Assembly (NCBI RefSeq): GCF_041146345.1
Contig: NW_027191415.1
Span: forward strand, 62,001 to 126,000
Length of the DNA: 64,000 nt
Direction of reading: 5' to 3'
From: Neodothiora populina
Taxonomy: Eukaryota
In this document: positions 26,066 to 61,300 of the stretch, piece after piece
How positions within the stretch are numbered: the first letter of the stretch is position 1
Layout: each line of letters begins with the position of its first letter
Translations under genes and position numbers: made by a program
Notes under the pieces: model-generated
Databases searched by the model: none
What the model was told of the DNA's origin: nothing
What the model saw: only the letters and a program-made list of their open reading frames with translations

Positions 26066-28006
26066 TTACTTGGTCGCAACGATCTTGTCGTTCGAACACG
26101 TCGTGCCGGCAGCCACACTGCCCATCATGACCCAACCGCCGTGATCACACATCAAGAACTGGTCGCTGCCGGAGCACTGGATCGCGCCGTCGCTGGTACA
26201 CGAGCCATATGGCTGCGAAGCAGCGATGCGGTCGTCGCGGTAGTAGCCTGATGGCGCGTCGGCTTGTTGGGCGTATTGTTTCGTCGAGGACGAGTATGGA
26301 GAGGTGTTGGGAAAGCACTCTGTGCCTGCTGCGACGACGCGCGATTCCTCGTAAACCCAGGCTGTGCTGCCGTCGCTGTACATGGTTTGGTCGCATGTGA
26401 CCCATGTGCTGAGAAATGTTAGCGTGCTGTTTTTTTTGTTTTGTGCTACATGAGAGAGGAAAAGCGGGAGCAAGGGGTGTGTGACTTACGTTTCAGATGT
26501 ACAGATGAACGTTCCGGGCACGCAAGGCAGATAGGTGGCCAAGTCACCAGTGGCGTAACCCTCGGTGATTTCAGGTCCAGCTGAAGACGTGGTTGCACTG
26601 CTGGTTGGCTTGGCTGACGCGGCTGGCTTGCCTGAAGTGGATGTTGCTGCCGAGACGACGACAACGGTGGAGGAGCTGATGGTCGAGAAACCGAGCAGAG
26701 TCGAGACACTTGAGCCTGTCAAGGATGGCGTGACTGATGAGGAGGCCCCTGCTGTACGAGTCACTGTGCTGGTCACAGGTGCGCTGGCGTAGACAGTTAG
26801 AGTCACGTCTGGCGGGCAGGTCTCATCTGCGGTCACGGTCGAGGTCGGGTCACCGCGTCCGGCTCCGACAGAAGAATATGTAAAGACAGATGTGGTTGCT
26901 GGCGAAGTCGATACGGACGAGGCAGCCTTTGAACTCGAAGAAGCTGGTGCTGTTGCTCTTGTGCTCGTGCTCGTGCTCAAAGTAGTAGGTTTGGTGCTAC
27001 TTGGTGCCTGAGATGGCGACGAACTTGAACCCACGTTCGAGCTGGAACTCAACGGTCTGCTGCTGGATGGCGCGGACGCCACCGAACTCGTCCTGATGGT
27101 AGAGCTCAAGCTCCCGGGTCTACTGCTTGTAATGAATGTGCTTGGTTGAGTGGTAGTCGGGCGCGTAAGAGAAGAAGTAGGAGCAGCGCTGCCAGTGTTG
27201 CTGCCACCTCCAGTGGACAACACTTCAGTGGCAGGATTGACACTGTCGGACATGTACTTGTAAGTCTGACCAAATGGTGTAGGTGCATCACACTGTCCGG
27301 GGTTGTCTGTTGGCGAGCTGGAACTGCTGGCGCCGCTTCCATAGACGACAGCTGGACCAGGGTCAGGATAGACCGGCGTGGTACCTTCAGTCGTTGTGCA
27401 GTCGTTGATCCCAGGCAGATTGGCTTTCCAAATGAAGGGTAGATCCTCAAAAGAGCTGAATCCAGAGGACGCATCGCGCTTGTTGGCCGATCCCGCAGTG
27501 GATCCCGTGATCTTTACTTCTGCACAGTTCATATAGAATTCGCGATTTCCCTGCAGGTTCTGCCACGTCCACGCGAACAGAGCCTGACCGTTGGGAACGT
27601 ATGAAGGGAGCGTGAAGTCGTACTTGTCAACCAGCGGGCATCCACCAATCATCGACTGGATGACTCTGAACGTGGCGCCGTTGTCGTACGAAAGAGACAA
27701 CTGACAAGAGCCTCCACCATGGACTGCACTCCCTGCAAGAGTCATGTTGTAAGTTGTGCCAGCAGTCCAAGTGGCTACGTTGTTGATCGGTCTATCATTC
27801 TGATAGCCCTTGCAAGGAAAGTTTGAACCGTCGGCGACCAGCGGCGAGGTCATACTGTAATCGATGTTTTGATAGTTGTTGGCAGGATCATACTTCGAGT
27901 GCAGGGGATAAGGCCAGCTCATCTCCATGTGTGCGAGCGCTTGAGGCGCGAGTGATAGAATCGTACATGTCGCCAGGACGGTCCGCAGACTTGTTTGAGA
28001 AGACAT
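26066..28006 (-). CDS. Secreted AA11-family lytic polysaccharide monooxygenase with S/T linker and C-terminal Cys-rich modules (619 aa; exons 28006-26490, 26408-26066)
   Basis: Signal peptide ending ALA followed by His1 (HMEMSWPYP), [28 protein letters not shown] (second His), NREFYMNCA (Glu/Tyr). Intron GTAAGT...GCTAAC...CAG. Confidence 0.88.
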
Positions 28007-29272
28007 GGTAAGGATATGGTTTTGCTTGTAAAGAACGGCAAATGCTTGGAAGGACAAGACTCCAGGTCTTATAACAGGGCGCTGAAAGAAACAAAAAGAG
28101 TGGCCAGCCACCTGTCAAAGGTTGCCAGGAGGTATGACAGCGCGAAACGGGGTGAAAGAGAGACTTAACAATACTGAACGTTGGTTGGTGTAGCAAACCG
28201 GTAGTGAACGTGAAGGTCGAACGGTTTTTCCAACATTCTTCGCGTTCTGTGCACTCGGTTTTAACGCGACTGACCATGGTGGAGATATGTGACTACTCCT
28301 TTTACCTCGGCGCCAACACAGATGTTGCTGCGTACGACTTGCTCCTGAAAGTTGCAATACAGCACGACCATACTGCTAACACGAATGGACAAATTGACTA
28401 AGCGCTCAGTGGAGGGAACGGCAATGTATAGCCGTTGACAAACCCGTTTCAGAACGGCGCCTCGCCCCAGGGGACAGCAACGAGAAGCATCACGGAAAAG
28501 ACGCTAGAAAGGCGACAGCGCAACGCAACGCAGAGCAAAACGTCTTGATCGCGTGGACACGCATACCACTCTGCAATGCGCGCCTGAAGCGTCGTATTAG
28601 ATGTGTGTCCACGGGGCTGCCTCGACCAGCGCATTTATTCTTCAGGGCTGCTCATGTCACATACATGCGCATACCTTAGCTTCGCTCTGATAAAAAGAAG
28701 ACACTTGAGGTATTCCTAGGGTGCGTGCAATAGCTCCATAGTTGAGAAAGATGTTGTTATGTGTACCGTGAAGGTCTACCAGTGGTGGACATGCGCCCAA
28801 GAGGCTGTGGCATACATTGAAGTATAAACAAATCGTTATCTCCCGGTCCTGTATAGTCGCAAAATACTACCTCGCCAACGTCGCCAGTCTTACCAAAAAG
28901 CGCCATGTAAGGAACAGTAAATGAACAGTTATCTTATGTCTCTGCTATGCCAGCCATCCATGATTGAACGTGTGGTGACGCGCGCCAACATCCGTGCTCA
29001 GGGCGTCGCCACAGCTGCGAGAACGTTGCCACGACCGCTGATTGGCGCTTCAAACTTCGTTCGCTCCGAACCGTTCATCCATCCTGGACGACGTCGAATA
29101 GCTACTAGCACGAGTCCCGAGTGATCGATATACTGCACCAAAAGTGTCGAAAAGGAGTCACGACAGGCTTATTGATCAGGGCTTGTCGTGTTCTGAAGAC
29201 ACTGTCACATACGTGGGTGACAGTGGTATCATACGCTACACCGCATTGCGATCTTGACTATAGCCTCTCAAT

Positions 29273-29976: not shown

Positions 29977-31400
29977 TTATTCCGTTGCTCCCTTCTTGTC
30001 CGGGAACCCGAGATCAAGCTGCAGATATCATTAGCACCGTACTTATACCATTTGCAAGTAGATATACATACACCGAAAGCTGGGAAGATGAGCCTCTTTG
30101 GCGGGTGGTTCTTGGAGATATGGTCAAGCGCTTGCAGATCGCTGTGGTCGAATTTGATGATTCTCATGTTCTCTTCAATGCGGGAAGGATTGACTGATTT
30201 CGGAATCACGCAGTTACCGCGAGCAACTGTCCAATCTGTTAGCGCAAGCAATTCGGGAGTTGTCAATCAATCTCACTGTGGTAGCTGAGCAGTACACATC
30301 CAGGAGTCACGTCGTGTTTCTTTGCAACCTCCTGGATCTCCTTCTCCTGGAAGAGAGGGCCTCCTGTACTGCCGAATGGACTGTATGCTGTGATGAGGAT
30401 GCCCTTCTCCTTGCAGTAGTCTCCGACGTCGTGTTGTGCAAGGTAAGGGTGGCACTCGATCTGGTTCATTGCCGGGACGACCTCAGCTTGGGGCAATAGC
30501 TCCTCGAGGTATTCAACCGAGAAGTTGGCGACTCCAATGGCCTTGGTCTTGCCAGTCTTGAGCACCTTCTCCATCTCCTTCCATGTCTGGATGTACGACC
30601 AGCTCTTGTCGAGATCGCGGGATCCATCGGGAAGCTTGGGAATGGTCTCATGGTTTCCCTTGGGGTTCATCGGCACGGGCCAGTGCATCAGATAGAGATC
30701 GACTGTTCGAGGAAGCAGGAGTTAGCAATAAACAACAATGCAGTGGCAAATGGACTTGAGTATGCGAATCTATCACTGCACTGCCGTCTTGACTGCACGG
30801 CGATTCACTATTTCCCGATGCGGAGCGGAGACAACAATGCAAAGACGTCACCGATGAATAGCGTAGTCAAGGACATCAAGTCGAATAACAATACTTCACA
30901 CCGCTGCAATTTATTTTCACGTGCAACAACTTCTCGAGGCGCGAAACATTGAAAGCAGGATAAGAAAGTCACAGCGTGTACTCACCATAGTCGAGACCGA
31001 GCTTGCTCAAACTCTTGTCCAAGTTCTCTTCTACTCGCGAGTGATAGGTACCTACAGTAGTGGGTCAGCGAGCGAAGTTTCAGAATATTAGAGACGGCGA
31101 CAGCTTACACCACAGCTTTGTTGTCACAAACACATCTTCACGCTTGATGCCAGAGTCGAATCCCTCCTTCAGTCCAGCGCCGACCTCATCCTCGTTGCCG
31201 TAGATGTAAGCTGCGTCAACATGCCTGTATCCGACCTTGAGAGCGTGTGAGACTGCCTTTGTCACTTCGCCCGGGGCAGATTGCCATGTTCCCAGACCTG
31301 GAACATATAAGCCTGGAAGTTCTAATAACATCACAAGAAACATCATACCGAGGGCGGGGACCTTTGCGCCAGTGTTGAGAGTAAACTTAGTATCGGCCAT
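29977..31400 (-). CDS. NADPH aldo-keto reductase, GAR1-like (candidate D-glucuronate/D-galacturonate reductase; 309 aa; exons 31400-31349, 31297-31109, 31051-30986, 30702-30277, 30226-30072, 30018-29977)
   Basis: AKR tetrad D(AAY)-Y-K(LW)-H(WP), GLGTWQS, IPKSV. The loop MNPKGNH...PKLPDGSRD and C-terminus P.FG.D.GFPDK resemble my recollection of Trichoderma reesei GAR1. The substrate is inferred. Confidence 0.88.
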
Positions 31401-32444
31401 CTTGGTAGGGTGCAGTATGAAATCGGGGGTCTTCTTCAGGATGAAGTTTGCGAGAGAAGGATTCATGGCAGGTTTGACGGAAGAAGCGAAAAGATATAGG
31501 GATTCACTTTCCTTGCAGAGATGATTGGTTTGTTTGTCAAATCAGAGCTGCTGCCCTGCCCGCCGCCCGCAGCAGATAAGTGAGCACGTCAACCTGGCGC
31601 CGAATCATTGATGCCCCACTACCCCTCTATCGACTTGCCTGGATAGGCATGGACGCTGGGAAACAAGGGTGGACAGGTAACTGACGCCGCTCGCTCATAC
31701 GTTAATCCGATACCAGTCGGCCCGGGCATGATATCAGGTAGAAACACAGAAAAGCAAAGGCCGAAGTTCCAGAGCCAAGCCCGCTCGGTCTCCGATTGTC
31801 CGAAAGATGGCTCACCTGATGCGGTAGAGAGGAGAAACCCATCTGCCGAAGCCTCCGCGGCGGCGACAAGACCGGGCGGGGTAGCTGTTCTGGCCGACGC
31901 TACGGCGTCCATAGTCCCGCTGGCGCATCCTTTGCCCCAGTATAATCGTCATTTTGCTGGCATGAGGGAGTGGAGATTGCATAATGCTCGCTCCGATTGT
32001 CCTGAGGTTGAGGAGCGTATTGCCTCCGGGCGGCGCGCTAGAGCGAAGATTTTTCCGGATTGGGGCCTTTTTTGCTTCCGATGGGGGTTTAGACTTCGTC
32101 TGGGTGGTCTGGGGACCCCTAGACCTTGACCACAACACGAAACAGTGGGCATGGGAAGAGCCAATGATGTGTCTCTTTTGCTGTTTGACCCCCCCTCTCT
32201 AGTGATCGAAATGAAGGTGAGAAACGATTCAGCAGGTTTAGTATTGCGTGTATGTGTAGTCAGAAGGTAGATAAACCCCCCTCCCTTCGCTCTGTAAACA
32301 CTTCTCTTTTCACCTCACTTGTGTTTCCATCTTCCCCAATCTCCCATTACTCAACCTGCCTGCGATCCTATACCATAGCATCTTCAGTCCTTCAGTACTA
32401 GCATTGCATTTCCGAGTCTCATACAAGAGGCCCCGTTATAAACC
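31401..32444. promoter_or_regulatory. Divergent promoter shared by the AKR and MIOX genes
   Basis: 1044 bp between head-to-head ATGs. Contains two exact copies of CTCCGATTGTCC (31790-31801, 31991-32002) and CCG(G)AT(T)GGGG variants (32055-32065, 32078-32087). Confidence 0.65.
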
Positions 32445-33419
32445 ATGGCCCCCATTGCTATTGAGACACCAAATGTCAACGAGAACTTCAATGACCACAG
32501 AGACGGCCTCGCTCTCGAGGCAACCTCGGATAGCATCGACGAGGTGAACGTCCTCAAGGCCGCCCTGAAGGTCAAGAACGGCACGGCGACGCAAGAAGAA
32601 AAGGACATATACGAAAAATCCCAGTTCGACGCGGAAAAGGACAAGACGCAGTTTCGCCAGTACGAGGACGCGTGCGATCGCGTCAAGAACTTCTACCGCG
32701 AGCAGCACGAGAAGCAGACGGTGGCGTACAATCTCAAAGCCCGCAATGACTTCAAGTCCAAGACGCGCGCCGAAATGACCATCTGGCAAGCCATGGAGAA
32801 GCTCAACACGCTCATCGACGAGTCCGACCCAGACACGTCTCTCTCGCAGATCGAGCACCTCCTGCAGTCCGCCGAGGCCATCCGCCGCGATGGCAAGCCC
32901 CGCTGGTTCCAGCTCACAGGTCTCGTACACGACCTCGGCAAACTGCTGTACTTCTTCGACGCCCAGGGCCAATGGGACGTGGTCGGCGACACATTCCCTG
33001 TCGGCTGCGCGTTCGACGAGAAGATCATCTACCCCGGCACATTCACCGACAACCCCGACTCCAAAGACCCCATCTACGGCACGAAATACGGCATCTACTC
33101 GCCCCGCTGCGGCATGGACAACATCATGCTGAGCTGGGGCCACGACGAGTACCTGTACCATATCTGCAAGGAGCAGAGCACGCTGCCCGACGAAGCGCTG
33201 GCTATGATCCGTTATCACTCGTTCTACCCCTGGCACAGCGAGGGCGCGTATTCGTGGGCGATGAACGAAAAGGACGAGGCTATGCTGAAGGCTGTCAAGG
33301 CGTTCAACCCTTATGATCTGTACAGCAAGAGTGATGATGTGCCCAGCGTCGACGAGCTCAAGGAGTATTATCTGGATCTGATCAATGAGTACTTCCCTCA
33401 GCAGGTCATCAAGTGGTGA
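32445..33419 (+). CDS. MIOX: myo-inositol oxygenase (324 aa, intronless)
   Basis: FRQY, LIDESDPD, HLLQSAE.IR, HDLGK, QWDVVGDTFPVGC, SWGHDEYLY, IRYHSFYPWH, DLYSK: the di-iron HD-domain ligands of MIOX are intact. Confidence 0.97.
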   Translation: MAPIAIETPNVNENFNDHRDGLALEATSDSIDEVNVLKAALKVKNGTATQEEKDIYEKSQFDAEKDKTQFRQYEDACDRVKNFYREQHEKQTVAYNLKARNDFKSKTRAEMTIWQAMEKLNTLIDESDPDTSLSQIEHLLQSAEAIRRDGKPRWFQLTGLVHDLGKLLYFFDAQGQWDVVGDTFPVGCAFDEKIIYPGTFTDNPDSKDPIYGTKYGIYSPRCGMDNIMLSWGHDEYLYHICKEQSTLPDEALAMIRYHSFYPWHSEGAYSWAMNEKDEAMLKAVKAFNPYDLYSKSDDVPSVDELKEYYLDLINEYFPQQVIKW

Positions 33420-33898: not shown

Positions 33899-35167
33899 TC
33901 AATTGCTCGAATCCTCGGGGGTCTCAATAACGACCTTGAGCACCAAGGTGCCGTCTTCCTCTTTCGTCTTGCCTGCGAGTGCAAAGGCTTCCGGCACGCT
34001 CTCCAGTCCCTTGAATCTGTGCGTCACCAGTTTGGAAAAGTCGACGGCATTCGGGCCTTTTGTCGTCATGACCTCGATGCCCTCGGGGTATGTGTTTGCG
34101 TATCTGAAGACGCCGACGATGTCGACTTCTCTTAGAGCGGCGGCGGACATGGCAAGGGTCTGAACTGGCACTCCCATTCCGACCAGCATTATGCGGCCTC
34201 CGGGACGTGTTGCCTAGATGTAGGGATTAGTGTTCACAAGAAAAAAAAAAGATGAAGCGGGACAGGGTGACTCACGTAGATGCCGGCTTGTACGCAAGAA
34301 GGTACACCGGTGCACTCGAAAACAACGTCCACTTCTCCGAGCTTTCCGTGGTCCGTCTCGACCTCAGCCAGCGCATCTGCCGTCTCTCTAGCGATGGCAA
34401 GGTTCTCCTCGGTGTCCTTTCCTCTCTTCATCGGCACGACAAAACTCTTGTGTGCAAAGCCATTCTTGACTGCAAAATCAACTCGTCCCTGGTCAATATC
34501 GGCGATCAAGACCGTCTTGGCCCCCTTAGTCTTTGCCACCGCTGCAGCGAGTAGTCCCACTGCGCCCGCACCGAAGACCAGCACCGTCTGTCCCTCCTTC
34601 ATCAAACTGCGTCTGCAGGCGTGAATCGTCACGCCGAGCGGTTCTAGTAATGCTCCGAGATCCATGCTCATCTCATCTGGCAGCTTATGGCACCACTTTG
34701 CAGGGTGATTGATTCTACCTTGCAGGGTACCCTGGAAATGGGGGAAACTCTTCGCAGAGCTTCGGAACCGCATGCTTTTGCAGATATTGTAGCGGCCTTC
34801 GTCACATCTAGCACATGCATCACAAGGAACACCGACTTCGAGAGCGACTCGGTCACCCGGCTTGAGATTCGTCACTGCACTGCCTACCGCTGTGACGATT
34901 CCGGATGACTCGTGACCCAGAGTCAGGGGCTCCTTGACGATGATGTCGCCGTTCCGGCCATGGTTGAAGTAGTGAAGATCGCTGCCGCAGAGACCGGTGC
35001 TGTGCACCGAGACTTGAACTTCTGTTGCTTCGGGGGCAGGAACTTCACGCGTTTCCTGTTTGTTACCATTAGCATTGAGATACAAGGAAGATGATACTGT
35101 TACTCACAATGCGGACATCTTTGGCGCTGTGGAGCACACTGGCCTGTACTTGAGTTGTAGACGGCAT
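33899..35167 (-). CDS. Zn-dependent NAD+ polyol/sugar-acid dehydrogenase, sorbitol-DH-like (candidate L-idonate or L-gulonate 5-dehydrogenase; 384 aa; exons 35167-35108, 35055-34276, 34213-33899)
   Basis: GLCGSDLH, GHE, structural Zn CDACARCDEGRYNIC, GAGAVG Rossmann motif with IADID (Asp, NAD+-type), GVFRYANTY. The substrate is inferred. Confidence 0.9.
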
Positions 35168-35490
35168 GGTTATGGAATGTGATAAATGAACGGTCTGTCA
35201 AAGGCATGTAACACTCTCTTCTAAAAGCAAAAGAATTGACGCCGGTGTATGCAGTTGCAATGACAAAAAGATGGCAATAGATATCAAGTAGTGTCTGAGA
35301 GACAAAACCAACATCGGCAACGGAGAGCGGGGATGGGGTAATCACGCATCCCCCACACGCTCGGCATCTGAAACTGGAAATAGCCTTTGATCATACCGCC
35401 TTATAATGAACACATCTGGCCCGCTGTTTATATTTCTGTATCATCTTCTACCCCTCTGTCATACTGTCAAACGAAAAAGAAACAAGAAAC
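35168..35490. promoter_or_regulatory. Short (323 bp) divergent promoter shared by the Zn-dehydrogenase and SDR genes
   Basis: Head-to-head ATGs. Central GC-rich patch with CGG triplets (35315, 35321, 35328, 35362) and inverted repeat GGGGATG/CATCCCC (35329-35353). Confidence 0.7.
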
Positions 35491-36338
35491 ATGCCTTCGG
35501 TGCAGCAACTCTTTTCCCTCGAGAGCGAGACCGCCCTTTGCACCGGCAGCACCCGTGGTATAGGACTGTCCATGACTCTGGCACTCGCAGAAGCCGGCGC
35601 AGACATTATTCTTGTCCAGGTATGAATTGAAAATGAATCATGCAGCTCGTCTCGATCAGTATCGCTAACTCTCCTCAGCGTGACGAGTCCAACCAAACCA
35701 CAAAACAGCAAGTCGAAGCACTGGGAAGGAAATGCACAATCTACACAGCCGACCTCTCCTCGAAAGCATCCCTCAAGGGCCTGGTGTCACGCATCACCGA
35801 CACCGACGGCCACAAGGTCACGATTCTCCTGAACTGCGGCGGCATCCAGCGCCGCCACCCCTCTCACCAGTTCCCCGACTCGGACTGGGACGAAGTGCTG
35901 CAAGTGAACCTCAACGCCGTCTTCACGCTGTGCCGCGACGTGGGCGCCCACATGCTGGCCCGCGAACCCGACGCGACCGGCCGACGAGGCAGCATCATCA
36001 ACATTGCCTCTCTGCTGACCTTCCAAGGCGGCATCACTGTGCCCGCGTACGCGGCGTCCAAAGGCGGTGTCGCGCAGCTGACGAAAGCCCTCAGCAACGA
36101 ATGGGCCGCAAAGGGAATCAATGTCAATGGCATCGCGCCGGGATACATCGACACGGACATGAACGTGGCGCTGATCAACGACGAGGCCAGAGCGGCGGGC
36201 ATCATGGCTAGGATCCCCGCGGGCAGGTGGGGCAGACCGGATGATTTCAAGGGCGCGGTTGTGTTTTTGGCTAGCAGAGCATCGGTCTACGTCACTGGGG
36301 AGGTGTTGTTGGTCGACGGTGGCTGGATGGGCCGATAG
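35491..36338 (+). CDS. Short-chain dehydrogenase/reductase, KduD / 5-keto-gluconate reductase-like (262 aa; exons 35491-35619, 35679-36338)
   Basis: [68 protein letters not shown]: the KduD-like signature. Arg rather than Asp after beta-2 (LVQRD) suggests NADP(H). Confidence 0.92.
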
Positions 36339-37472: not shown

Positions 37473-38558
37473 TCAGCCTCGATGGCCGTCCAGAGGTCCC
37501 CCTGTCAACCCATGAAAGACCTTGGTGACGGCGTTCATGCCCTTTGTCAAGTGCGGATGTCTGTTCGGACTGCTGGCATGAGCCCCTGCTGCGCCACCGC
37601 TGGCCTCGCTATTTTTGACGGCGTCCTTGCCATTCGCCTGCTTGTCGTTGTTGTTATTCGCATGACTGTTCTTTTTGCTCGTGGCCACGCTGGGCTCCGG
37701 GGCTGCTGGTTTCGGCGGCCAGTTCCCTTCCTCTTTCCAGCCGTGTATTAACGCGTTGGTGATGTCCTGCAGGTTTATGGGAATGGTGGGTGTGCGCGCC
37801 TGTAAGATGACTTTGGAGTAAATCTCCGAGTATGTGTGAGATGTGATGCGCCGCCGCACAGGGTGATTCGGTAGAAGCCTGGGCGCAATGGGAAGCAGGA
37901 CGCTTGCATCTTCTGCAATGGCCAAAGGTTGTGTCTTGGGCTCGACAATAGCTGGCGCTGTGCTCGCCGTCTTATCTGCTTCGTCGACTGCATCCGCTGG
38001 ATTCGCTTGCCGCATCTGGTTGCTCCTCGCTGCAGTCCATGCATTTCTCTGAGCGCTGTAGTGAGCAAGACCAATGTTCCACGTCATCTCTTCCTCCGAC
38101 TTCTCCTGTCTCTTTCTTTTCCGCGCTTCTTTCTGCGCCGTCACACTCCCGCCGGAATTACTCAATTGAGACATTGACGTCGCTGCAGAATGGCTGCTGC
38201 CGCTCTTACGTCCAATCTGCACGGCCCTCAGTCCGCTGCTGATGACCCTGTCCTCTCCGTCCTCGTCATCCGACGTCTCGTTGTCGCTATACACTCTCTC
38301 CCGCCACCCAATGGGCTCAAAGTCAATCGAACTCGACCGCGTCATGACAGCGGCAGCAGTGCTGCTCTGCGGGCCATCCATGACATGTGCCGCCACGGCC
38401 TCTTTGGCGTTCGGCAAGACGTACGCACTCGTGTGCGTGTGCGGGTGTGGAGCGCTGGGGTACTCCCAGTCATTGCGCACTTTGTCCTGCAGCATGCGGC
38501 GCGCCTCTCGCGTTTCTTCCTGCGCGTGCCCATGCGGCAGTCCTAGATGTAAAGGCAT
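37473..38558 (-). CDS. Gag1-like clamp (DUF4050) domain protein (361 aa)
   Basis: W.IGL.HY..QR.AW and Y.EIY.KV.....PT.PINL.D...AL..GWK..G.WP motifs recognised from this family. Single long ORF. Confidence 0.7.
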   Translation of the reverse strand: MPLHLGLPHGHAQEETREARRMLQDKVRNDWEYPSAPHPHTHTSAYVLPNAKEAVAAHVMDGPQSSTAAAVMTRSSSIDFEPIGWRERVYSDNETSDDEDGEDRVISSGLRAVQIGRKSGSSHSAATSMSQLSNSGGSVTAQKEARKRKRQEKSEEEMTWNIGLAHYSAQRNAWTAARSNQMRQANPADAVDEADKTASTAPAIVEPKTQPLAIAEDASVLLPIAPRLLPNHPVRRRITSHTYSEIYSKVILQARTPTIPINLQDITNALIHGWKEEGNWPPKPAAPEPSVATSKKNSHANNNNDKQANGKDAVKNSEASGGAAGAHASSPNRHPHLTKGMNAVTKVFHGLTGGPLDGHRG

Positions 38559-38731
38559 CTTTGCTGTTTATGCCCGGTCCTGCGGGTCTGCCGTGAGGCT
38601 GTTCTGACGCTCGCAATGCTTGATTCGCTCTGGAAGTTGCGGAGGACTGACTGTAGTGTATGCACAGAGTAGCGCGCGAGATAAAAGAGGCTGCAATACT
38701 CGGGAGAACTACCTCGTGCGCATCTTTGGTG

Positions 38732-39804: not shown

Positions 39805-40811
39805 TTATAAGACCATGACCACGAGACCAGCTACGAAAGCCAGTGCGCCGAAGGATGCACCGAGCTGAGCTGCAGCTCCGGTCTGGGTCGAGGAAGCGGC
39901 GGCGGCAGAGCCTGACGAGGACGCAGAGGATGAGCCCGTCGAAGAGGATGAAGATCCCGTCTTGGTCGATGTCCTGAGAGAGCTGGCCATAGACGCAGCA
40001 GAGCCCGAGGGCTTCACATCGGTTGAGTTAGCAAAACCCCAACCTGTGAATGCAGCTGCGCCGCTGGTGCCTTTAAATACCAAAGAAGAGCTGGTCGCTG
40101 TCGTGCCGTTGCTGCCTGTAGCGCTGGCCTCGGACGCAGCAGATGTGACAGCTGAAGCGCCAGCAGATGCGACAGAGGAAGCGGCTGAAGTTGCGCTGGC
40201 GACGACAGAAGAAGCAGACTCAGAGATATCCGTGACCGCGGCTGCTACCTTCGCGGCAGGAGTACTGGTCACAACATGTGCGGAGCTTGCAGACTCGGGT
40301 GCCGAAGAGGTCTCCGCAGTGGACGCGGAAGCTGAGCTTGCAGACGAAGAGCCGCCGCTGCTGTACTGATCGTTTGAGATGCCAAACTGTGTGGTGTCTG
40401 TGTGTTCCTGTCAGTCCGCTGCTCCGATCCAAGGCAATACAAAAGACTCGACATACATTGGTAGGTACCATCTTCGGCGACGAGCTGAATACCGTAACCA
40501 GTGGGCTGGCTCGGCTCTAGGTCAGAGGTAGGGGTCCAGTCATAGTTGCCGCTGTTGTCGATGCTATCGGCAATCGTCTTGACGGTGACGCAGTTCGTTG
40601 AAGGACCGTGGCAAAGCGTCAGGGAGACCTTGCCCTTGGTGGTGGGGTCCCATGTAATAGTGAAAGGCTTGCCGGCAGGCACGACGGAGTTGAGTCCAGG
40701 CTCGTAAATGGCGTTACCCGATGGCGTATCACCTTTGGCTGTGTAGACTGCAGAGACCACGGGACCGAAGACGGCAAGGCCGGCAGTGAACAGGGTAAGA
40801 GTGGGAGACAT
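39805..40811 (-). CDS. GPI-anchored Ser/Thr-rich cell-surface protein with Kre9/Knh1-like N-terminal domain (315 aa; exons 40811-40457, 40397-39805)
   Basis: Signal peptide; GNAI..PGL...VPAGKPFTITW.PT..G.V.L.L..GPS.N...IADSIDNSG.Y.WTP...YGIQL...YQYTTQFGISN; S/A/T-rich stalk; hydrophobic C-terminus after TGAA. Confidence 0.85.
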
Positions 40812-41999
40812 TGCGTATACGAGGATAAAAGATAACAATGATGGAGTCAAATGCTTGTTTCCCCTTTCCTTGCTTCGTGTTTCGATAGTAACGTATTGCT
40901 TTATCCGGACACGATGGATGGTTTATACAGATTTTTATGCGTGTTGGTAGCAAAATTGGTGAGAGAAAACCGATTGGATTCGGGATGCGAATGCAGTAAT
41001 AAAGATTCTTGATTTAACGAATGGCTGAAGAGCAAAAAAGCCTTCTTCATTGAGCGAGCGTGATGGACTAAAACTGGTGGGCGAAAAGAATGGACGAACC
41101 GTTCCGTGTTGTCGTGGTGGCAGTCTCACGATATAAACGTCCAAACGAGTAAGGAGGCAGGGTGCAATCACCAATGTACGGCACTATAACGCTGATTCAA
41201 GGCCTCCATCTCTCTTCGGCGTCTAAACTTAGTGGCCCAGATGTCATGGCGGTCATTGCTCTTTGCTCATCAGAACGTGCTCCCTCCTGGCCCATGACAT
41301 TTGCTTGATTCATCATTTCGCCTATTGTCAGGCCGGAGTAAACATGTCTGGACGGGCTGCATGTTCCACTAAGATGACCGTAGAGAGCTTGATGAGGTTA
41401 AACATCGATCAGTCGTGTCTTGGCGCAATTTCCTCCCGCCTGGCTAACTCCTTGGCCCCAAATTAGCTTCGAGGGCGCCGACCGTCGTTGCAAATCGATA
41501 AGGCACCAGCCTCGAACGCGATGGACTGGTCTGCTATCGCGAGTCACGCACGCGACGGGCGTCACAACGTTCAAATTTTGGAAAGGTCAAGAGGTAAAAT
41601 TGCAGATATAGTACATAGTGGGGTTGGGAATAACGTCCTGTGATGCGGCTCCTTCGCGCGTCTCGGGTTTAAATCAAGAGATAAAAGCTGTGGTGCGCTC
41701 CGCCACAGTCTTTTCTGACTAGGAAGAACGGTAGCGAGTTACGCCTGACAGACTGGTGTGATCTAGTCATGTCGAATGCCTTATGCCAGGGACGGGTCGT
41801 GTTTTCATATTTTTAGCAATTGTTGCAGGCTCGTAAAATCGTAGAATGCATAAACAATTGAGCAATCGTTAGTCGTGGCTTTCATCATTCATGGTGAAGG
41901 TTGCAGATGAGCTAGTAAGGCTCGGATTTTGTATAGGGCGTCCATCAAAGCGGACATAGCCGTTGTGATCCTGGCTGACGTACCGACTTGGCCGAGGTT

Positions 42000-43511
42000 C
42001 TAACTACATTGACCAGGGTCTGGAGAAGTAGGTTAGCGGAGACTTGCAGCATGAGTCATTGATTCATCTTACGGTTTCTGTTCGTGACGGGATTGGGATA
42101 GACGCCTCCGGCAAGAAGAGCTTGCATGTCCCACTCCGGGGCACCCTCGGTCTTCCAGGTCCAGAAGATCCAGCCAGCAGCCTTTTCATAGGCATCCATC
42201 TGAGCCTCTACGAAGCGACCGATATTGTCCTTGTCGGCTGAGCTGAGGTCGGCGACGAAACCCGAATATTTTCCATCACAGCTGCCAATATAGTACGACG
42301 ACTGACCATTATAATTGTAGGTTCCATCGTACCTACGCGATCGATTGTGTTAGTACATGGATGACACCATTGAACATCAAGAGATGCTTACCTGGCCCCA
42401 ACACCCCGTCCGTTGAGCCACTTTGCACAATCTGTGAAAGCTCCACTCCATTCACCAGCAATGGTCCACTTGTTGTTCGTCGACATGGACCCACCAAAGC
42501 CACAAGCTGTGCTCAAGTGATCCTTGGGACTAGCTTCCAATTCGCCAGAAGAAAAGACTTCATAGTGATGTGTGTCCAGGAGTAGGTTCCACATGCCAGA
42601 TCCCCACTCATTCCAAGCAGTGACGCCTTCGAATGCATCATGGAACGTGATAGCAACATTGCTGTTTTGCAGGTCACCCCATCCGTCCATATAGAATTGA
42701 CGCACAGTGTCCATATTGAGAGAGGGACCCAGTGGCTCGTTCAGCAGCTCGATCGCAGCCACAGCCGAATGCCCGGCCAGATCGTCACGGAGCTGTTTGA
42801 GCGCCTGGAGCGTCTCATCAACCGTATTGCCTTGAGTCCATCCTACGCTTCCACGCTGGCCCGAATTGTCGAAGCCGTTCTGGGAACCGGGAGCTGTAGA
42901 CTTTTGTCAGTGGTTTCCTAGATGCATCTAGAAAGAGAGGCTGCTCTCACCTCCGTGCAGATCGATCAATACTTTGAGGCCTGCTCCTCCAGCCCAATCA
43001 CAGGCAGCATGAAGATACTCATAGGCACCCTTGATGTACGGCGAGCTGTCGTAGCCGATCTCGGAACCGGTGATGGACCAGTAGCCGATTGGGATTCTCA
43101 CAAAATTCATACCCGCCGCCGCGATGGCGTACATGTCAGACTCTTGAATCCAGCTCGACCAGTGCGGGGTGAGTCGCGAGTTACCCTCATCTTGCCCATA
43201 CTGCTGGCCATAGGTATATTCGTCTACAACGTTGTCTGGAGTCGCCTCGAATACACTAGGTGTGATCCATGGTTCGAGCACCAACCATCCGCCCAGGTTA
43301 ACACCCCGAACTTTCTCATCGCCGAAGCCAAATTTGAGGGTGTCATCGCGTTTCAGGTAAGAACTACAGCAAGATTAGCGCGTTTGCAGAGCCAGTAAAG
43401 AATTCATCACTAGTGAAGAACTTACAATCCACGAGTTGGCGCAGCATTAATTATGTTTGGCAGCCAGACAAAAGCTGCCAGGGTTGAGGTGATGACTGGG
43501 TTGCACCGCAT
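42000..43511 (-). CDS. EXG1: Secreted GH5 exo-beta-1,3-glucanase, Exg1-like (426 aa; exons 43511-43426, 43363-42951, 42893-42392, 42332-42073, 42019-42000)
   Basis: Signal peptide plus KR; VRGVNLGGWLVLEPWITPS, VRIPIGYW, DLHGAPGSQNGFDNSG, IELLNEP (acid/base), DTHHYEVF, GEWSGA.TDCAKWLNG (nucleophile), GWIFWTWKTE. Confidence 0.93.
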
Positions 43512-47252: not shown

Positions 47253-50200
47253 TCATTTTCGTAGCATTTTGGCCCAACTGGCCATCTTGTCGATCTTGGG
47301 GATGATTTCAACGATGCGAAAGGGCTTCGAAATGGCATCGTCCATGCCTGCAGAGATGGCCTCTCTCGTCTGTTCCGGCCGCGCGTTGGCGGACACGGCG
47401 ATGATGGGTATGTGCCCGGATATCTCGCCCTGTTTCTGGTAGTCTCTTATGCATCTCGCCGCCTGCAGGCCGCCCATGACCGGCATCTCGACGTCCATCA
47501 GGATGACGTCCACGTCGAGGGCGTTGTCGTCGGCGGCGACTGTCGTTCTGTTGCCTCGCCAATATTTTGTTGTCCTGAGAAAGTCGAGCGCTTGTTGTCC
47601 GTTGTCTGCTGTGTACACGTTGTATCCGTGTTTCGTCAGTTGCTTCTTGAGCACTTTTTGATTGAGGATGTTGTCTTCTGTCACCAAGACAGTGACTTCG
47701 TGCGCGGTCATGCGGTGTTTGGTCAAGGACATGTTGTCGACTTGTTCTTGCAAGCCTTGCACTTTCGTCGCTGGGGGATCTGTGTGCACTGTCTTGACGA
47801 AGAATGCGAAAGTTGATCCTTTACCTGCTTCTGACGCGACGCCAATCTCGCCGCCCTGCAGACCGGCGAGTTCTCGACTGATGAACAAGCCGAGTCCGGA
47901 ACCGCCGTACTCGCTGTACGTCTTCGGGGATCCTTGTGTGAATCGTGAGAAGATCTTGGATTTCTCTTCTTGCGTCATGCCTCTACCAGTGTCTTGGACG
48001 GTGAACCATAGATGAAAGGTACGACCAGCGAATTCAGGTCCTTCGTATATGCTGTCGCGGACCGAATGCGCCAACGCAAATTCGACATTCAACGAGCTCT
48101 CTGACGGTCGAGCTTCGCTGGCGCCCATGCGAATAACGACGTGACGGATGGACTCGTTCTTGGTGAACTTGATGGCATTTGTGACCAAATTGATTAGAAT
48201 CTGGAGAGCTCTACCGGAGTCGAGAAGGGCATAGGTCGCCTTCATCTGCTCAAATGATTCATCCACTTCTGTCCGTACATCTACATTTGCACGTTGGGCC
48301 TCTGCTTCAAAAAGTTTTGAGACGTTTTTGAGCACATCCTCAAGTCGGACAGCCGATGGCGCGATCTGGAGGAGGTTCGAGTCAAGCTTGGAAAGAACCT
48401 GTCCACATTGTTAGGAGGTACATTAACAGACATCCCGAGTGCGTGGCAAGCATACCAGGATATCGTCGACGATTCTTTTGAGATGCGAGGTACAAGACTC
48501 GATGGTGTGCGCAGAATCGAGACTATTCCTGATCAGGTCGAGCAATTGGCCGAGCTTGTTAACGTGTTCGGTCAGTTTCAGCGTTTCTGCTAGGTCTCGC
48601 ATGTCTACCAAGCCATCGGCGATGGCGTCAGTACAGTGAACAATAGCGCCGAGAGGATTTCGAATCTCATGGGAAGTCATGTCGATGAAGTTTTCCTGCT
48701 GCCTTTTGGCTTCGACTGCTTCATTGATACGCATCTGCTGTGAGGTTTCCGCCCATTTGAAGCCAGTAATATCTGACATAGTTCCCATTATGCCTTTGAT
48801 CGTTCCGTCATCGTTGAATTCGGGATTGGCTGTCGCCATGACCCAGATTGGTGATATAGGCTCCCCGTCGGTGTCAGTCCACATGCGTTTAAGTCGGAAC
48901 TGGACATTCACAGTCTCTTTCTGACCAGTTAGCGCTGACCAAATGTGGTCGATGACTTGGATATCCTCTTCCAGAACAGCACTTCGCCAATCGATATTGG
49001 TGTAATCGCCCTTTTCGAGACCTGTCAGAGCAAACCAAGCGTCGTTTCCTATGTTCGTGTTCGTGTCAGTCCAATGTATACTGGAACGAGTACAGTAATA
49101 ACATCAAAAGCATGAGATGATCCCCGTAAGAGGTGTCGCCAACGGGCCGAACTATCCTGGGGGTCGGGTCCATTGGGCAGCAAAGAGGAGTGATTCACCA
49201 TATGTGACCTTCTTAGAAGGGTGCTCTAGTATGTAAATGGGCACAGCAGATGATTCTGTGAATCGTACAAATCTCTGCTCAGATGCTCTAGCTCTTTCCA
49301 GTGCTTCCGCACGTTGGACAGACTCTCTCTCGGCACTCTTCTGGGCATCTATGTCCGTGATACAGCCGAAGAGAGTCGAAAAATTGCCATCTTCATCAAG
49401 GATAGGAATGCAAGCAGCAAGCGTCCAGCGGCCTGGATCTGGGCCTCCAGGCACTGCCCGATCCGGGGCTTTCCAACGCATCTCGAAATTGAGTGAACGA
49501 CCCTGTGACATGACATGCCATTGCGATAACGCAAATTCGAGATCATCTTCTTAACGGTTAGCTATCACATCCGACCGCTTGTGCTTGTTCTTAACTTCGA
49601 ACGAACCGGGAAAGACCGCATCAGTGAACTGTAACTCAACCTGGTGATCCTTTTGGACACCGCTTATGGTATAGTATGCGTCCTACAAGTCACGGTATGA
49701 GCTTTGCCGCCTTGAAAGATCGATACTAGAGAACCGTCGCAATATATTGACATATCGGGCCACACGGAAAGAACGTACATTTGCTTGTCGCCTAGCTTAG
49801 TTAGTCACTGATGTTCAATAAGCCAAGGAAAGCGCGCAAGGACTTACAATACCCCCTTGGAGTCATATTCGAAGACTCCAACATCAATCAGGTCCACCAA
49901 TGAAGTCATTCTCTTGTATCTTTCATTAGCAAGATCCGCCTTTTTTTCACTCTCTCGCGCTTGCTCGAGCGCTTCGGCTCGTCGAAGCGCATCGCGGACA
50001 ACCCTCTTTTGCGGTCCTATGTTGGTCGTGCAGCCCGAAATGGCGATCAATGTTCCGTTCTCGTCCATGACTGGTATACAACTAGACAGCACCCATTGCC
50101 CATCCTCGGGTGGTCTCTCTCCCGGAGCAGGAGGTGGGGCTTTCCATCTCATCTCGAATGTCGTAGGGTTACCTTGGACTAAATTTCGCCAATTGCGAAG

Positions 50201-53006: not shown

Positions 53007-54592
53007 TCAGTACTTGTATCTGAACTCCTTGTTCAGCCTGTCTGTAACATCGGAGAACTCAATGTCCGCCTTATGCTCCATATGCGTCTCTTCCATAAGT
53101 CTGTCCCTTCTCTTATTCTCCCACATGTAATAAACGCGAAGAACTGCTGTCAGCATGATTGCAACTGCACAAGTGACTACTATCGTAATTTTGGCAGGAA
53201 TGTAGTCAGGAGCGTCCTCGGGACGAAAGGTAAGAGGTCCTATTATGTTACCGAGGCAGAAGGACATTAGAAGAATCGCATTCATTGTCACTATTTAGTA
53301 TAGTCAGTGGCATGTTGCTTCAGTCACTTTGGTTCAACCGTACCTTTCTTAGTGTGTCCTGCGTAGTTAGCACCAACCCAGCTGTAAAGCAAAGGCAAGC
53401 TTGCACCAATGCAATTGGTCAGATAGTTTCCGATCAATCTGCCTGGCTTGTTGTCCGCGCTGAGGAAGGCCATGAGGCAACCACCAATCACGCCCGGGAT
53501 CAGTAGCGTAATAACATTCAGCCCACGCTGGTTGAAGCGTCCGGCGAGATACGTTGCTATCAATATGGAAACAATCGAGACTCCTCCAGCGGGGATCTGC
53601 AGCAGGGCAGTCTGCTTGCTATCATAACCAAAAGCTTTGATTGTGATGGCTTGAAATGACGAGATAGCACCATTCGGTACGCTCGACGAAATCGTGATCA
53701 GACTGAGCAGCCACGTCTGAGGATCAAGGAAGCACTCAACGACTTGAGCAGGTTTGAAGTTTTTGTTCTCAATACCAGTCTGATTCTCACGAAGGCGCTC
53801 GACAGCCCAGATCTTTTCGTCATGAGTGAGCCTGCTCTGCATCGGATTGTTGGGCAGAAACAACAGACAGGTGCTACCGATGCAAACAGTCAAGAGACCA
53901 ACGACGAGGAAGAGGATCTGCCAGCTGTAGAGCGCTGCAGAATGCACATGCTGGAAGGCGTAGGAGAGCAGACTGCCTATCACCACACCAGTGCCGGTCC
54001 CGAGATACCATATACCTACTCGGAGAGGCTGCTCATGCTTTCGGTACCACATGGTGGTGATCAGATTCAGAGTCGGCGCGACAGCAGACTCGAAGACACC
54101 GAGTAGTACACGTGTGGTGATCAGCCCGCCATAATTATGACAGGCAGCCGTCACAGCAACAACGGCACCCCAGCAAGTGACCATGACTCCCAGGTATTTC
54201 GCGGTCGGGAATCGTTGCATGCCGTATCCATGGGGAAACTCGAAGACCAGATAGGAAACATAGAAGATCCACGCCAGGTTTGAGAAGTCTCCCTTCGTGA
54301 TGTTTGCATCATCGTAAAGACCCATGACTGCAGCATAGTTGATCAATGTCTTGTCGAGATACTGTGCCCAGTAGCAAAGCCACATCAGTGGCATGATCAT
54401 CCAATCAATCTTGCGCACAAGTCGCTTCTCATCCTCAGGGGTCATTTCTCCCGCACTGGACTCGTGGCGTAAGAAGTCAAGCGCTGCATCAGCATCACGC
54501 ACATCCCTTACTTCTCCTATCTCATAGTCTGGGGTGACCTTCGTAGGTGAATAGTCCAAGGCCTTTTCTTTATCTGGGTAGTGTTCCGCCAT
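53007..54592 (-). CDS. MFS transporter, allantoate permease (Dal5-like, anion:cation symporter family; 510 aa; exons 54592-53344, 53290-53007)
   Basis: LVRKIDW.IMPL, YLDKT.INYAAVMG, R.LLG.FES, MWY..EQP.R, RLRENQTG, N.AGHTKKVT.NA, GNIIGP..F..DAP.Y, D.TD..N.EFRY.Y. Confidence 0.9.
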
Positions 54593-55347
54593 GATGGAAA
54601 ATAGCCTCAAGGATGTATTTTCAGACCTCGGAGATTTGAGGCGAGTATCGCAGAAAAGGGTGATCAAATATCGACAAAAGGAACATGGAAGAGACGCACG
54701 TGAAGCACCTACCTTGCCTGACTACATATATCTCGTTGAGAAGGCGGTTCCTATGATCATACAAACCTAGCACTAGCTTACAGTGTTCAACTATAACAGC
54801 ATGCCTATCATATCAGATTGTGTGACTCGATAAGGTCGCCCTATCAGCAACATTGCCTGGTCGCTACTCCGACAGGTGGTGATGTTGATCATAATGATTG
54901 AATGCCCGCGGGTCATTTGAACAAGGATGGAGTGAGACGTCGCTCTGTGGCCGGCGGCCAGCTACTAGATAGGGAAGGTCGGGATCACGGACTTTAGGTC
55001 GGGTACCTCCGAGGCCAAAGTGAGATGTAAGCGTCACAACAACCATTCATCTTGCCAGCATCGGCATCAACACTTGGAACAATTTTACATGACGTTCGAT
55101 TGATACAGTAGTGTATATACTATCAGTGCCGCCTATTAGTGTATGTCTTTCAAGGTGGCTGAAATAACAGTGGCCTTGTTGAAAGCCGCTGTTGTCGCCA
55201 ACAATGATAAGGTAAAGAAAGCGATTATGTTGTACAAAGAACGCGATGATCTCGCGACTTCTGACATACAGAAGGATGTAGGTTTGATGGGAACTCCTGG
55301 CTGATGATCGGAATGATCTTCTTTCCCTATAGCCTAGGATGAAGCCA

Positions 55348-58339: not shown

Positions 58340-61300
58340 GACTAACAACTCTCAGATCTGCAAATGTTCTGGCTTGGATAAGTGTATCCTCTGAATGTAA
58401 TGAGATGGTGAAGGGACGAGAACAACGCTTATCTTATAGCTTTCTAGAGACTGCTAGAAGAGAAAGGGAGGTTCAAAGGCTAGAAGGTTTGCACGTCGAG
58501 CGCTTGGTGGATGAGCCGGTAGATGGGCAAGAACACTCGACGACACTGTTAGAGGCACTACGGTAGGTATCAAAGTTTATTATTGTGCCCAAGGTCTTCT
58601 GCTGTGACGCAAGGCCGCGGGGCGGCGGGACAACGAAGAATTGCTCATGGATGATATCCCTTACTACACTTGTGGTAAGCAGTTACTGCATAGTGCGGCA
58701 GATCACCAGAGTAAGTGTACTACATTGGAGCAAGCAGCATCCACTTAGTCTCAGCTTGTCCCGCATGAGAACACTCCACGATTCTACAAGGCTCAAAGTG
58801 AAACAGTACGAGGACTGAGACCTGTTACGGATCACGCATCCAACCTAAAATACCAGAATAGCGAAATGGAGTGAGGGGGAGGGGTCGAACCTGAACGTGA
58901 AATTGGTAGTGCAAGGTAAAGTGACTGGACGGCCAAGCATATTCGTACATCTTTTATACCTTACCCTCCTTGGACTGACTTGATGATCTCATGGAGTTAC
59001 TGACATCGAGGAGATGCATCACGACTTTCTGTATGTCCACAACCAATCCTGGAAATTTGCAGAGTATTGCACGACCAAGAGCTTTGCAGCTGTATGGAAG
59101 GGCAAGCATATGAAGCAGTCCAACATGATAGTTACATCATTGCGTTAATAAGGTGTGTTTTTCCTTCCCTGCATCACATAAATCGGCACTTAAAACTGGC
59201 TAGCCATAGCTAGCCCCGGGAGGGTCCGCATATGGACAGGTTATTGTAGTTCGTCGGTTGGTAATGATTTGCCCGCTTCGTCCTGCCCACCTTGTCAGTT
59301 TTGACAGCAATCATCACCACCAGCTCGATGAACTTGGAGTTGTGCTCCACTTAAGGTTGCGGCCGACCAAAACTTTTCAGCGTCAAACTTTCACATTCCA
59401 GGCATTCAACGTTCATCCCGATAGTTTCAACAACGACTGCCCAAGCTCCCGTCACACGTCCACATTTCTGTTACATATTGCTTTCGAAATGCGAAGCAAA
59501 TGGCGCATAGGTAGCTGTACTGACCACAAAAGTCGCCGTCCTACGCTACAGACAAAAGGTCACGGTCAAATCTTGGGCGATATACGCAGACTCAGGTTTT
59601 GCTCCACCAAAGGAGTACAAGCAAAAGACCGCTACTGGTTTTGACAGAGCAGTAGAGCTATTGGTCCAGTCCCAACCCCACTGTGAACCAGCAGTTTGCG
59701 ACCGCAGTAGCACAGGCAGCATCGATGACCGGTCAGCATCTCTACTCCTCCTAAGCTAAGCAAGAAGTTGAAGTTACTTTGTGCGATCATCATGGACAAT
59801 GCGCAATCAGTCACTGCATATTCGCATTTGCGAGGATGGTGCTGTAACATCCTTATTGGTCGGTATACTTGCCTCCTGTCTCACCGACATCGTGGGAGCA
59901 GCAGACTAGTTGAGGAATTCTTTTTCCACCCGCGGAAGGATTGTGTCTCGGACCTCCTCTCGACTTCATACCAAAATGAGAAGCGATATTTGAAGCAGAT
60001 GATGGTGGTGACGATGTTATCTTGCTGCTCTGGACATCTTAGGAAAGCTACCACGTCGGAGACTTTCGACCAGTCTCCAAGGAGGCGAACCACCTGGTGT
60101 AGTGATGGCTGTAGCGACTCTCTCCATCGTAGATTCCAAGATAGATCGGCCTCTGAGATATGATTGATTCATCTGAGCCCTGTTCTCCCTGTTCCAGGAC
60201 AGCGAGTGCAATGTGCTCACTGTTTGACTAGCCTCGTATCATTACTCGCAGGCTATCTTCAAGTACTCTCGAGTAGTTCCTTCGATCTGAAATGTAAGAG
60301 AAACCGAGGCTTAGTGTCTAGGTATTCTGGGACGAGCGACTTCGCAATTTTGAATTGTCAACGCGCAAAGGACCTCTTAAGTATCAGAGTACATCTGAAG
60401 CCTATGCGGCAAGTATGTAAAATCGCATTGAGAACAGCACCTACATCGCGCTTCAGTAGTTCCTTTCGCTGCGTGCAAAGTGCTTCTCCTCGCTTAGCCA
60501 TTATATGCGCCATGTGGCGTGCCTTGACCAACACCTTGTTGTACGGAAATGCGCTATGGTATAACGACCATTCTGTTAGGTTGACCTACTCCATACTTTG
60601 TATACCTAAAAAGATCCGATGATACATTCTGCGATGATATGATGTAGGCCACCTCTTGGAGTACCCGCATGATATGAGTGCGCCCAAATTCCGCCTGCCC
60701 AGGAAGTTTACCCCGGAAGCCATGAACATCAGAACCACTACACTATTTTACTCGCCGCACGGGGTCCATGTGTTCTTATACATGCGAGTATCTACGAACA
60801 TTATGCTCGTTTATAATGTTCACGTGAAGTTCGAGCAATCAAACGTAGAAGGTGGCAAGAAGCGATACTCAAAGATCCAGACCTTCTGTCGTACAACTGA
60901 ATTCATGCATGATTGCAGTTGCGTGGGCGGTCTCATGGGAAACACATGCTGAACGAGTACGCAAGTATAGGCGAAACGCCTCTTTGAGAGATTTTTCCTA
61001 TGGTATGTATGGTCGAATACAGGGAAACTCCTTTCTACAGTTCCACTTCCCCCACCTAATCAATACTGCAGTGGTAACATTACATAGGCTATATTCCGAT
61101 ACAGCAGAAGAACGATCGCTCAGAGTTCTTGAAGCTCATGACACTGCATCCACAATTCTTGACCAAATGCCTCAGGGCTGCCGCTCTCTATTCAAGCCAA
61201 CTCTCACAGCCATCAGACCGGTCTAAAGAACCGAGGGTGCCTGCCAATATGATCGTGGCAGCCCAGGATCTATGCCAACGCAGATTCGTAATCTCATCCG

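Follow-up and report, generated by a model that had tools for sequence, protein, structure and literature searches.

A 64-kb stretch of the Neodothiora populina genome (positions 62,001 to 126,000 of contig NW_027191415.1; hereafter the window, in which all positions below are counted) contains, between 29977 and 36338, four genes arranged as two divergent pairs: an aldo-keto reductase (AKR) gene with a MIOX gene, and a zinc-dependent dehydrogenase (Zn-DH) gene with a short-chain dehydrogenase/reductase (SDR) gene. On balance, we favor the view that the Zn-DH/SDR pair is a C5-inverting module that converts L-idonate through 5-keto-D-gluconate to D-gluconate, as GluE and GluF do in Aspergillus niger. 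The Zn-DH would oxidize the C5 hydroxyl of an L-hexonate with NAD+, and the SDR would reduce the 5-keto acid from the opposite face with NADPH. In concert with MIOX and the AKR, the pair would carry inositol through D-glucuronate and L-gulonate onward to a D-hexonate, with the C2-inversion steps (L-gulonate to 2-keto-L-gulonate to L-idonate) encoded outside the cluster, and with D-gluconate entering the pentose phosphate pathway via gluconokinase. The cluster physically ties MIOX to late enzymes of the D-glucuronate pathway. In the literature searched (subscription journals being outside its scope), fungal inositol catabolism after MIOX is not worked out, and nothing relevant was found on a MIOX-linked cluster or a fungal inositol route.

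Gene structure and conservation of the cluster

The AKR gene (29977..31400, minus strand) has six exons (31400-31349, 31297-31109, 31051-30986, 30702-30277, 30226-30072 and 30018-29977) and encodes 309 amino acids, a predicted NADPH-dependent D-glucuronate reductase yielding L-gulonate. It is separated by a divergent promoter region of 1044 bp (31401..32444) from the MIOX gene (32445..33419, plus strand), a single exon encoding the 324-residue enzyme that converts inositol to D-glucuronate. The Zn-DH gene (33899..35167, minus strand) has three exons (35167-35108, 35055-34276 and 34213-33899) and encodes 384 amino acids, a predicted NAD+-dependent hexonate 5-dehydrogenase. A second divergent promoter region, of 323 bp (35168..35490), leads to the SDR gene (35491..36338, plus strand), whose two exons (35491-35619 and 35679-36338) encode 262 amino acids, a predicted NADPH-dependent 5-keto-hexonate reductase. 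Positions 33899-36338 run from the Zn-DH stop codon to the SDR stop codon, and the deposited N. populina proteins P0121 (Zn-DH) and P0001 (SDR) equal our gene models letter for letter.

Pfam confirmed all four families of the cluster that a preliminary description of this DNA had recognized. MIOX matched PF05153 over its full length (8.9e-127, profile positions 1-249 of 249), the AKR matched Aldo_ket_red in exon 4 (2e-22) and exons 1-2 (3.2e-10), the Zn-DH matched ADH_N (6.3e-26) and ADH_zinc_N, and the SDR matched adh_short_C2 (1.2e-44). Among solved structures, AKR1 aldehyde and aldose reductases come nearest to AKR exon 4 (∼95 bits). The mammalian aldehyde reductase AKR1A1 is a glucuronate reductase, and the first two steps of the mammalian MIOX/aldehyde reductase pathway use the same two families as the window.

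The pairing of Zn-DH and SDR is far beyond chance. Their locus tags follow one another in N. populina (AAFC00_006126 for the Zn-DH, AAFC00_006127 for the SDR), and the same holds in 12 other Dothideomycete species present in both match lists, and in one more assembly that came from a search with the Aspergillus orthologue of the SDR. Metagenome contigs were scanned with an alignment of 12 Zn-DH orthologues. The scan yielded 80 fungal loci (75 after removal of redundancy), and the four window proteins were compared with these related loci. In 38 loci, the sequence upstream of the Zn-DH is long enough (1500 bp or more) for an SDR to be assessed; 30 of them have a divergent SDR within 1.5 kb, and eight do not (L011, L042, L049, L069, L073, L076, L077 and L079). 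An AKR lies near the Zn-DH in 22 of 75 loci and MIOX in 13; where at least 5 kb is available on both sides (n = 13), the pair is present in 11 loci, the AKR in nine and MIOX in six. Of the 11 loci holding both MIOX and the AKR, 10 have these two genes divergently paired and one, L002, does not. In nine loci, the AKR is convergent with and directly downstream of the Zn-DH; the upstream SDR is visible in four of these (L029, L044, L072 and L078), and in the remaining five the flank is too short to show it. The order of the AKR/MIOX and Zn-DH/SDR pairs relative to each other varies among loci, and this speaks for selection on their linkage.

The Zn-DH/SDR pair is ancient and conserved. In a tree of 70 Zn-DH sequences, taken as tblastn pieces, the loci lacking an SDR did not form one clade (seven rows, seven changes), and the tree is uninformative about paralogy. 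A representative search with the Zn-DH, together with two name look-ups, reached fungi of many classes, yeasts and Chaetothyriales included (Cadophora, Lipomyces, Podospora, Auricularia, Fonsecaea, Dipodascopsis, Cutaneotrichosporon and Hyaloscypha), but not Aspergillus. Likewise, no Eurotiales appeared among the organism-named proteins in the best 120 Zn-DH matches, and no Eurotiales-like contigs, judged by SDR identity, among the metagenome loci.

Active-site residues, cofactor and substrate type

Alignment of the Zn-DH with human sorbitol dehydrogenase (1pl6) and a ketose reductase (1e3j) places C43, H68, E69 and E158 at the catalytic site of the human enzyme, and the structural zinc site, with its four Cys, is kept. 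D206, invariant in 12 Zn-DH orthologues, corresponds to the Asp of the NAD+-dependent human enzyme, whereas Ala-Arg stands there in the NADP(H)-dependent 1e3j; the cofactor site is therefore predicted to be of the NAD+ rather than the NADP+ type. Sorbitol, xylitol and L-arabinitol dehydrogenases are nearest among the solved structures (269 bits for human sorbitol dehydrogenase, 242 bits for xylitol dehydrogenase), and RspB (4ilk) scores 111 bits. Escherichia coli IdnD, an L-idonate 5-dehydrogenase of the zinc-dependent medium-chain dehydrogenase/reductase (Zn-MDR) type, works with IdnO, an NADPH-dependent SDR, in the same C5 inversion to D-gluconate, but these are only distant relatives of the window pair: the best NCBIfam model for the Zn-DH is that of IdnD (NF007375), at 153 bits against a cutoff of 469, and the solved bacterial L-idonate 5-dehydrogenase 6dkh reaches 129 bits, compared with the 269 of human sorbitol dehydrogenase.

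The Zn-DH carries a four-residue insertion in a motif with conserved basic residues, F[RC]SSAKxxPH (F117-H126; window positions ∼34739-34768, minus strand). In human sorbitol dehydrogenase, the counterpart of this loop in the alignment is the Phe118-Thr121 region, which contacts the substrate. In a survey of 58 of 150 Zn-DH representatives, the insertion was present in all 16 fungal representatives of at least 41% identity. Among the other 42, it was complete only in P0367, P0422 and P0459 and partial in P0438; P0459 is bacterial, and its cluster carries the automatic JGI/IMG name L-idonate 5-dehydrogenase. Turtle sorbitol dehydrogenase and the fungal D-xylulose reductase representatives have no insertion. 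A short-query search of the PDB, aimed at the loop of 6dkh, did not list that entry. Our reading is that the Zn-DH would be a sugar-acid 5-dehydrogenase derived within the polyol dehydrogenase clade, and the substrate of the pair is predicted to be a sugar acid rather than a neutral polyol. The insertion could serve as an annotation signature separating this fungal Zn-DH subfamily, along with the bacterial group that bears the L-idonate 5-dehydrogenase name, from sorbitol, xylitol and arabinitol dehydrogenases.

The SDR has the Ser-Tyr-Lys site (S154, Y167 and K171), and its nearest models and structures are KduD and gluconate 5-dehydrogenases. With only exon 2 scored (219 of 262 amino acids), the best NCBIfam model was KduD TIGR01832 (266.8 bits, cutoff 338.85), and the same query gave 174 bits with the gluconate 5-dehydrogenase model. 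Two arginines, R22 of the Gly motif and R44 just past strand 2, agree with the NADP-type gluconate 5-dehydrogenase 1vl8 and differ from KduD 4z9y. Such basic residues mark NADP(H) binding in SDRs, which points to NADPH as the cofactor. Oxidation with NAD+ followed by reduction with NADPH is the arrangement that drives a two-step epimerization. The proposal in the preliminary description that the pair may be a C5 redox epimerase is supported in kind, with an NAD+-type Zn-MDR carrying a sugar-acid-type loop and an NADPH-type, KduD-like SDR, although the kind is one already known.

Known routes and alternative readings

In A. niger, D-glucuronate is reduced to L-gulonate by GaaA and another reductase, and 2-keto-L-gulonate is converted to L-idonate by either of two D-isomer 2-hydroxyacid dehydrogenases, GluC (NRRL3_08410), which uses NADH, and GluD (NRRL3_00318), which uses NADPH. 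GluE, a strictly NAD+-dependent enzyme of the Zn-ADH type, then oxidizes L-idonate to 5-keto-D-gluconate, and GluF, a strictly NADPH-dependent SDR of 265 amino acids formerly misannotated as a 2-deoxy-D-gluconate 3-dehydrogenase, reduces this to D-gluconate. As described in these reports, deletion of gluC, gluE or gluF ends D-glucuronate use, 2-keto-L-gulonate builds up on deletion of gluD, and 5-keto-D-gluconate builds up on deletion of gluF (PMC5306355, PMC5814732, PMC4870679). GluE/IddA and GluF/KgrA resemble the window pair in both enzyme families and in the predicted division between NAD+ and then NADPH, and GluE and GluF also act downstream of D-glucuronate reduction. Since it matches both A. 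niger GluE/GluF and E. coli IdnD/IdnO, the window pair belongs to a known kind of module. We infer the substrates, the direction and the pathway place of the pair from these likenesses. Should this reading be right, it would offer many fungi a better annotation than "sorbitol dehydrogenase-like" or "2-deoxy-D-gluconate 3-dehydrogenase."

The gene arrangement itself probably has published counterparts. In Neurospora crassa, NCU01904 (kgr-1), NCU01905 (idd-1) and NCU01906 (gar-2) are consecutive, as are Trichoderma reesei TrC1352W, TrC1351C and TrC1350W (GAR1), and the source table gives the members of each trio as predicted orthologues of gluF, gluE and garB of A. niger (PMC13158570, supplement file 4). 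Their order of SDR, Zn-DH and AKR is that of loci L029, L044, L072 and L078, and their functions are assigned by predicted orthology. Judged by synteny, the two trios and the genes of the window probably represent one conserved module. N. crassa does not grow on D-glucuronate.

Pathway genes were sought in the window by a Pfam scan of 274 open reading frame (ORF) pieces (5 + 27 + 127 + 115), consisting of the longest frame per place among 88 ORFs of at least 130 amino acids and of all 232 ORFs of 75-129 amino acids. There was no match to 2-Hacid_dh, Gfo/Idh/MocA, gluconokinase or sugar-acid dehydratase families among these pieces, in a scan that could overlook exons shorter than 75 amino acids. 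This upholds the observation in the preliminary description that the cluster has no gene of the 2-hydroxyacid dehydrogenase type. Nor were C2-inversion genes found among 91 neighboring ORFs of 30 related loci, and neither the window pieces nor these neighbors include a mannonate dehydratase or a UxuB-type fructuronate reductase. A gluD-like neighbor was also sought beside Zn-DH genes lacking an SDR, and none of 27 ORFs from the 12 such loci scanned was a 2-hydroxyacid dehydrogenase. Of the two explanations that had been offered for the missing genes, their location elsewhere in the genome is the likelier.

Several observations weigh against the L-idonate reading. If the route from inositol to D-gluconate is counted in six steps, the cluster holds steps 1, 2, 5 and 6 and never 3 or 4, in the window and in the 30 scanned loci alike, which is odd. 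The Zn-DH is likened to GluE (NRRL3_00319) by family, cofactor and context, not by orthology; moreover, A. niger gluE is paired with gluD, a 2-hydroxyacid dehydrogenase gene, and gluF lies elsewhere, whereas the window Zn-DH is paired with an SDR, beside MIOX, and so does not show the 2-hydroxyacid dehydrogenase partner that GluE/IddA has. The SDR differs as well. A search with its Aspergillus orthologue, followed by the accessions of the A. niger clusters (P0253 and P0316), showed that the member of its orthogroup in A. niger ATCC 1015 is EHA20545.1 (ASPNIDRAFT_50499), of 257 amino acids and 70.7% identical to the window SDR, and GluF (EHA27001.1, 265 amino acids) was not among the best 120 matches to that query, the weakest of which was still 71-72% identical to it. 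Judged by this orthogroup, the window SDR is not an orthologue of GluF but of its A. niger paralogue EHA20545.1. The fold, too, does not discriminate between the candidate substrates, because sorbitol dehydrogenases accept both configurations: by our own Fischer-projection reasoning, L-gulonate read from C6 has the sorbitol configuration and L-idonate that of L-iditol. Finally, the fungal enzyme converting L-gulonate to 2-keto-L-gulonate, sought since 2016, is still given as hypothetical in a 2026 listing, and the published table gives no T. reesei orthologue of gurA (PMC13158570, supplement file 4).

Since EHA20545.1 falls in the orthogroup and GluF outside the best 120 matches, the SDR common across the Pezizomycotina is an apparently uncharacterized paralogue of GluF. 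This pan-fungal SDR is slowly evolving, and the literature searched contains no mention of EHA20545 or ASPNIDRAFT_50499. The pan-fungal SDR has its true A. niger orthologue in EHA20545.1, yet the published N. crassa table ties NCU01904 to gluF. This paralogy, the link between the pair and MIOX, and the sugar-acid loop signature go beyond what the preliminary description contained.

That description suggested that the pair may act directly on L-gulonate, the Zn-DH oxidizing it at C5 to D-fructuronate and the SDR reducing this to D-mannonate, for a gap-free route from inositol. We consider this unlikely, and retain it as an open minority reading. The chemistry given there for both C5-epimer pairs (L-idonate/D-gluconate and L-gulonate/D-mannonate) is correct, and the conversion of L-gulonate through D-fructuronate to D-mannonate does occur in bacteria, as described for Haemophilus influenzae GulD, UxuB and UxuA (PMC5788505). 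Such a route would account both for the L-gulonate 2-dehydrogenase that has eluded discovery and for a cluster, conserved in several arrangements, that has no C2-inversion gene; in our own reasoning, L-gulonate can also be regarded as a 6-carboxy analogue of sorbitol, which is the substrate classically associated with this fold. The window SDR belongs to the uncharacterized paralogue group, and even the test library for GluF, which held L-gulonate and D-tagaturonate, contained neither D-fructuronate nor D-mannonate. As stated, however, direct action on L-gulonate is not supported, given that A. niger needs GluC and that a mannonate dehydratase is absent from the window pieces and the scanned loci. 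The requirement for GluC, which acts upstream of GluE and GluF, means that the route carries no flux in A. niger; L-gulonate was in the same laboratory's substrate libraries, though this is not stated for GluE, and the A. niger sugar-acid dehydratases reported as tested had no L-gulonate activity (PMC5306355, PMC5814732, PMC4870679). In H. influenzae, moreover, the reductase is UxuB and not a KduD-like SDR, and mannonate dehydratase is part of the pathway. The fate of D-gluconate in fungi is obvious, whereas we know of none for D-mannonate. A broader form of the proposal, in which MIOX, AKR, Zn-DH and SDR would make up a self-contained fungal route bypassing 2-keto-L-gulonate, with GluC, GluD, GluE and GluF of A. 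niger as a paralogue-based elaboration, seems to us a shade more doubtful still.

Two further readings would take the pair away from hexonates of the D-glucuronate pathway. Its enzymes might act on L-galactonate (from D-galacturonate), through D-tagaturonate to D-altronate, or on neutral polyols, without sharing any pathway with MIOX. The AKR by the T. reesei pair is indeed listed as GAR1, a D-galacturonate reductase (PMC13158570), and the eight assessable loci without an SDR and the many loci without MIOX fit such independence, but the pair is found repeatedly with MIOX, the AKR and an IolG-like gene, in differing orders, a candidate motif is common to both divergent promoters (see below), and GluF has no reported D-tagaturonate activity, so that we regard this reading as very unlikely. 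Least probable in our estimate is an animal-like glucuronate-xylulose route, with the SDR as L-xylulose reductase, the Zn-DH as xylitol dehydrogenase, and an L-gulonate 3-dehydrogenase and a decarboxylase, acting before the pair, encoded elsewhere. MIOX and an AKR1A-like reductase are the first two animal steps, the Zn-DH finds its best solved relatives in the sorbitol and xylitol dehydrogenases noted above, and some SDR orthologues are named sorbose reductase-like. Against this, the Zn-DH has the sugar-acid-type loop that the D-xylulose reductase representatives are without, and the nearest relatives of the SDR, KduD and gluconate 5-dehydrogenases, act on acids. In addition, CRYL1, the decarboxylase and DCXR of the animal route from L-gulonate to xylitol are described as typically missing from fungi (PMC12337341).

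Promoter motif and neighboring genes

A candidate motif, CARAKGCCGA, occurs three times in the window, compared with 0.63 sites expected by chance: at 31755-31764 (plus strand) in the AKR-MIOX promoter, at 35361-35370 (minus strand) in the Zn-DH-SDR promoter, and at 60146-60155 (minus strand), away from the cluster, where an ORF that matches no Pfam family ends. In the related loci, it was present in 20 of 34 SDR-Zn-DH intergenic regions (23 sites in 18.8 kb) and in five of 11 AKR-MIOX intergenic regions, whereas the remaining locus sequence, used as background, had nine sites in 546.6 kb. Because the motif was defined post hoc from these same, mutually related sequences, it is a lead for co-regulation and not a result.

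An IolG-like Gfo/Idh/MocA oxidoreductase gene, which the window does not have, adjoins the cluster in seven related environmental loci (L002:10934-12193, L007:2854-3879, L009:3213-4037, L010:7996-9321, L027:6926-8272, L039:11994-13340 and L075:11914-13212). Its products score 234-252 bits with TIGR04380 (cutoff 355) and up to 177 bits with solved inositol dehydrogenases, and the enzyme may channel other inositol isomers to MIOX. Its presence supports a role of the cluster in inositol use. Next to the cluster of the window, no transcription-factor gene was found. Three of the related loci have a Fungal_trans_2 transcription-factor gene close to the pair, namely L007 (878-2551), L015 (4911-6071) and L027 (13158-14315), and L002, L007 and L027 share an ORF of 628-682 amino acids that matches no Pfam family; both are possible regulators of the cluster.

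A search of sequencing runs listed no RNA run containing this DNA. Comparison of the window with sequencing runs X3 and X1 gave DNA-like contigs only, with no spliced joints, and is silent on expression. Contigs of the candidate source run have one base fewer at 32189, in the AKR-MIOX intergenic region, where there is a sole contig, and one minor contig has one base fewer at 33451; both positions are non-coding. The cluster is flanked by genes unrelated to it, a Ser/Thr-rich ORF (26486-28114) and a Gag1-like clamp protein (37473-38567). Farther along the window are a Kre9/KNH protein (40269-40922), pieces of a GH5 cellulase (42388-43374), a hybrid histidine kinase with PAS, HisKA, HATPase_c and Response_reg domains (47253-49103, minus strand, ∼11 kb from the cluster), and an MFS transporter (53324-54721).

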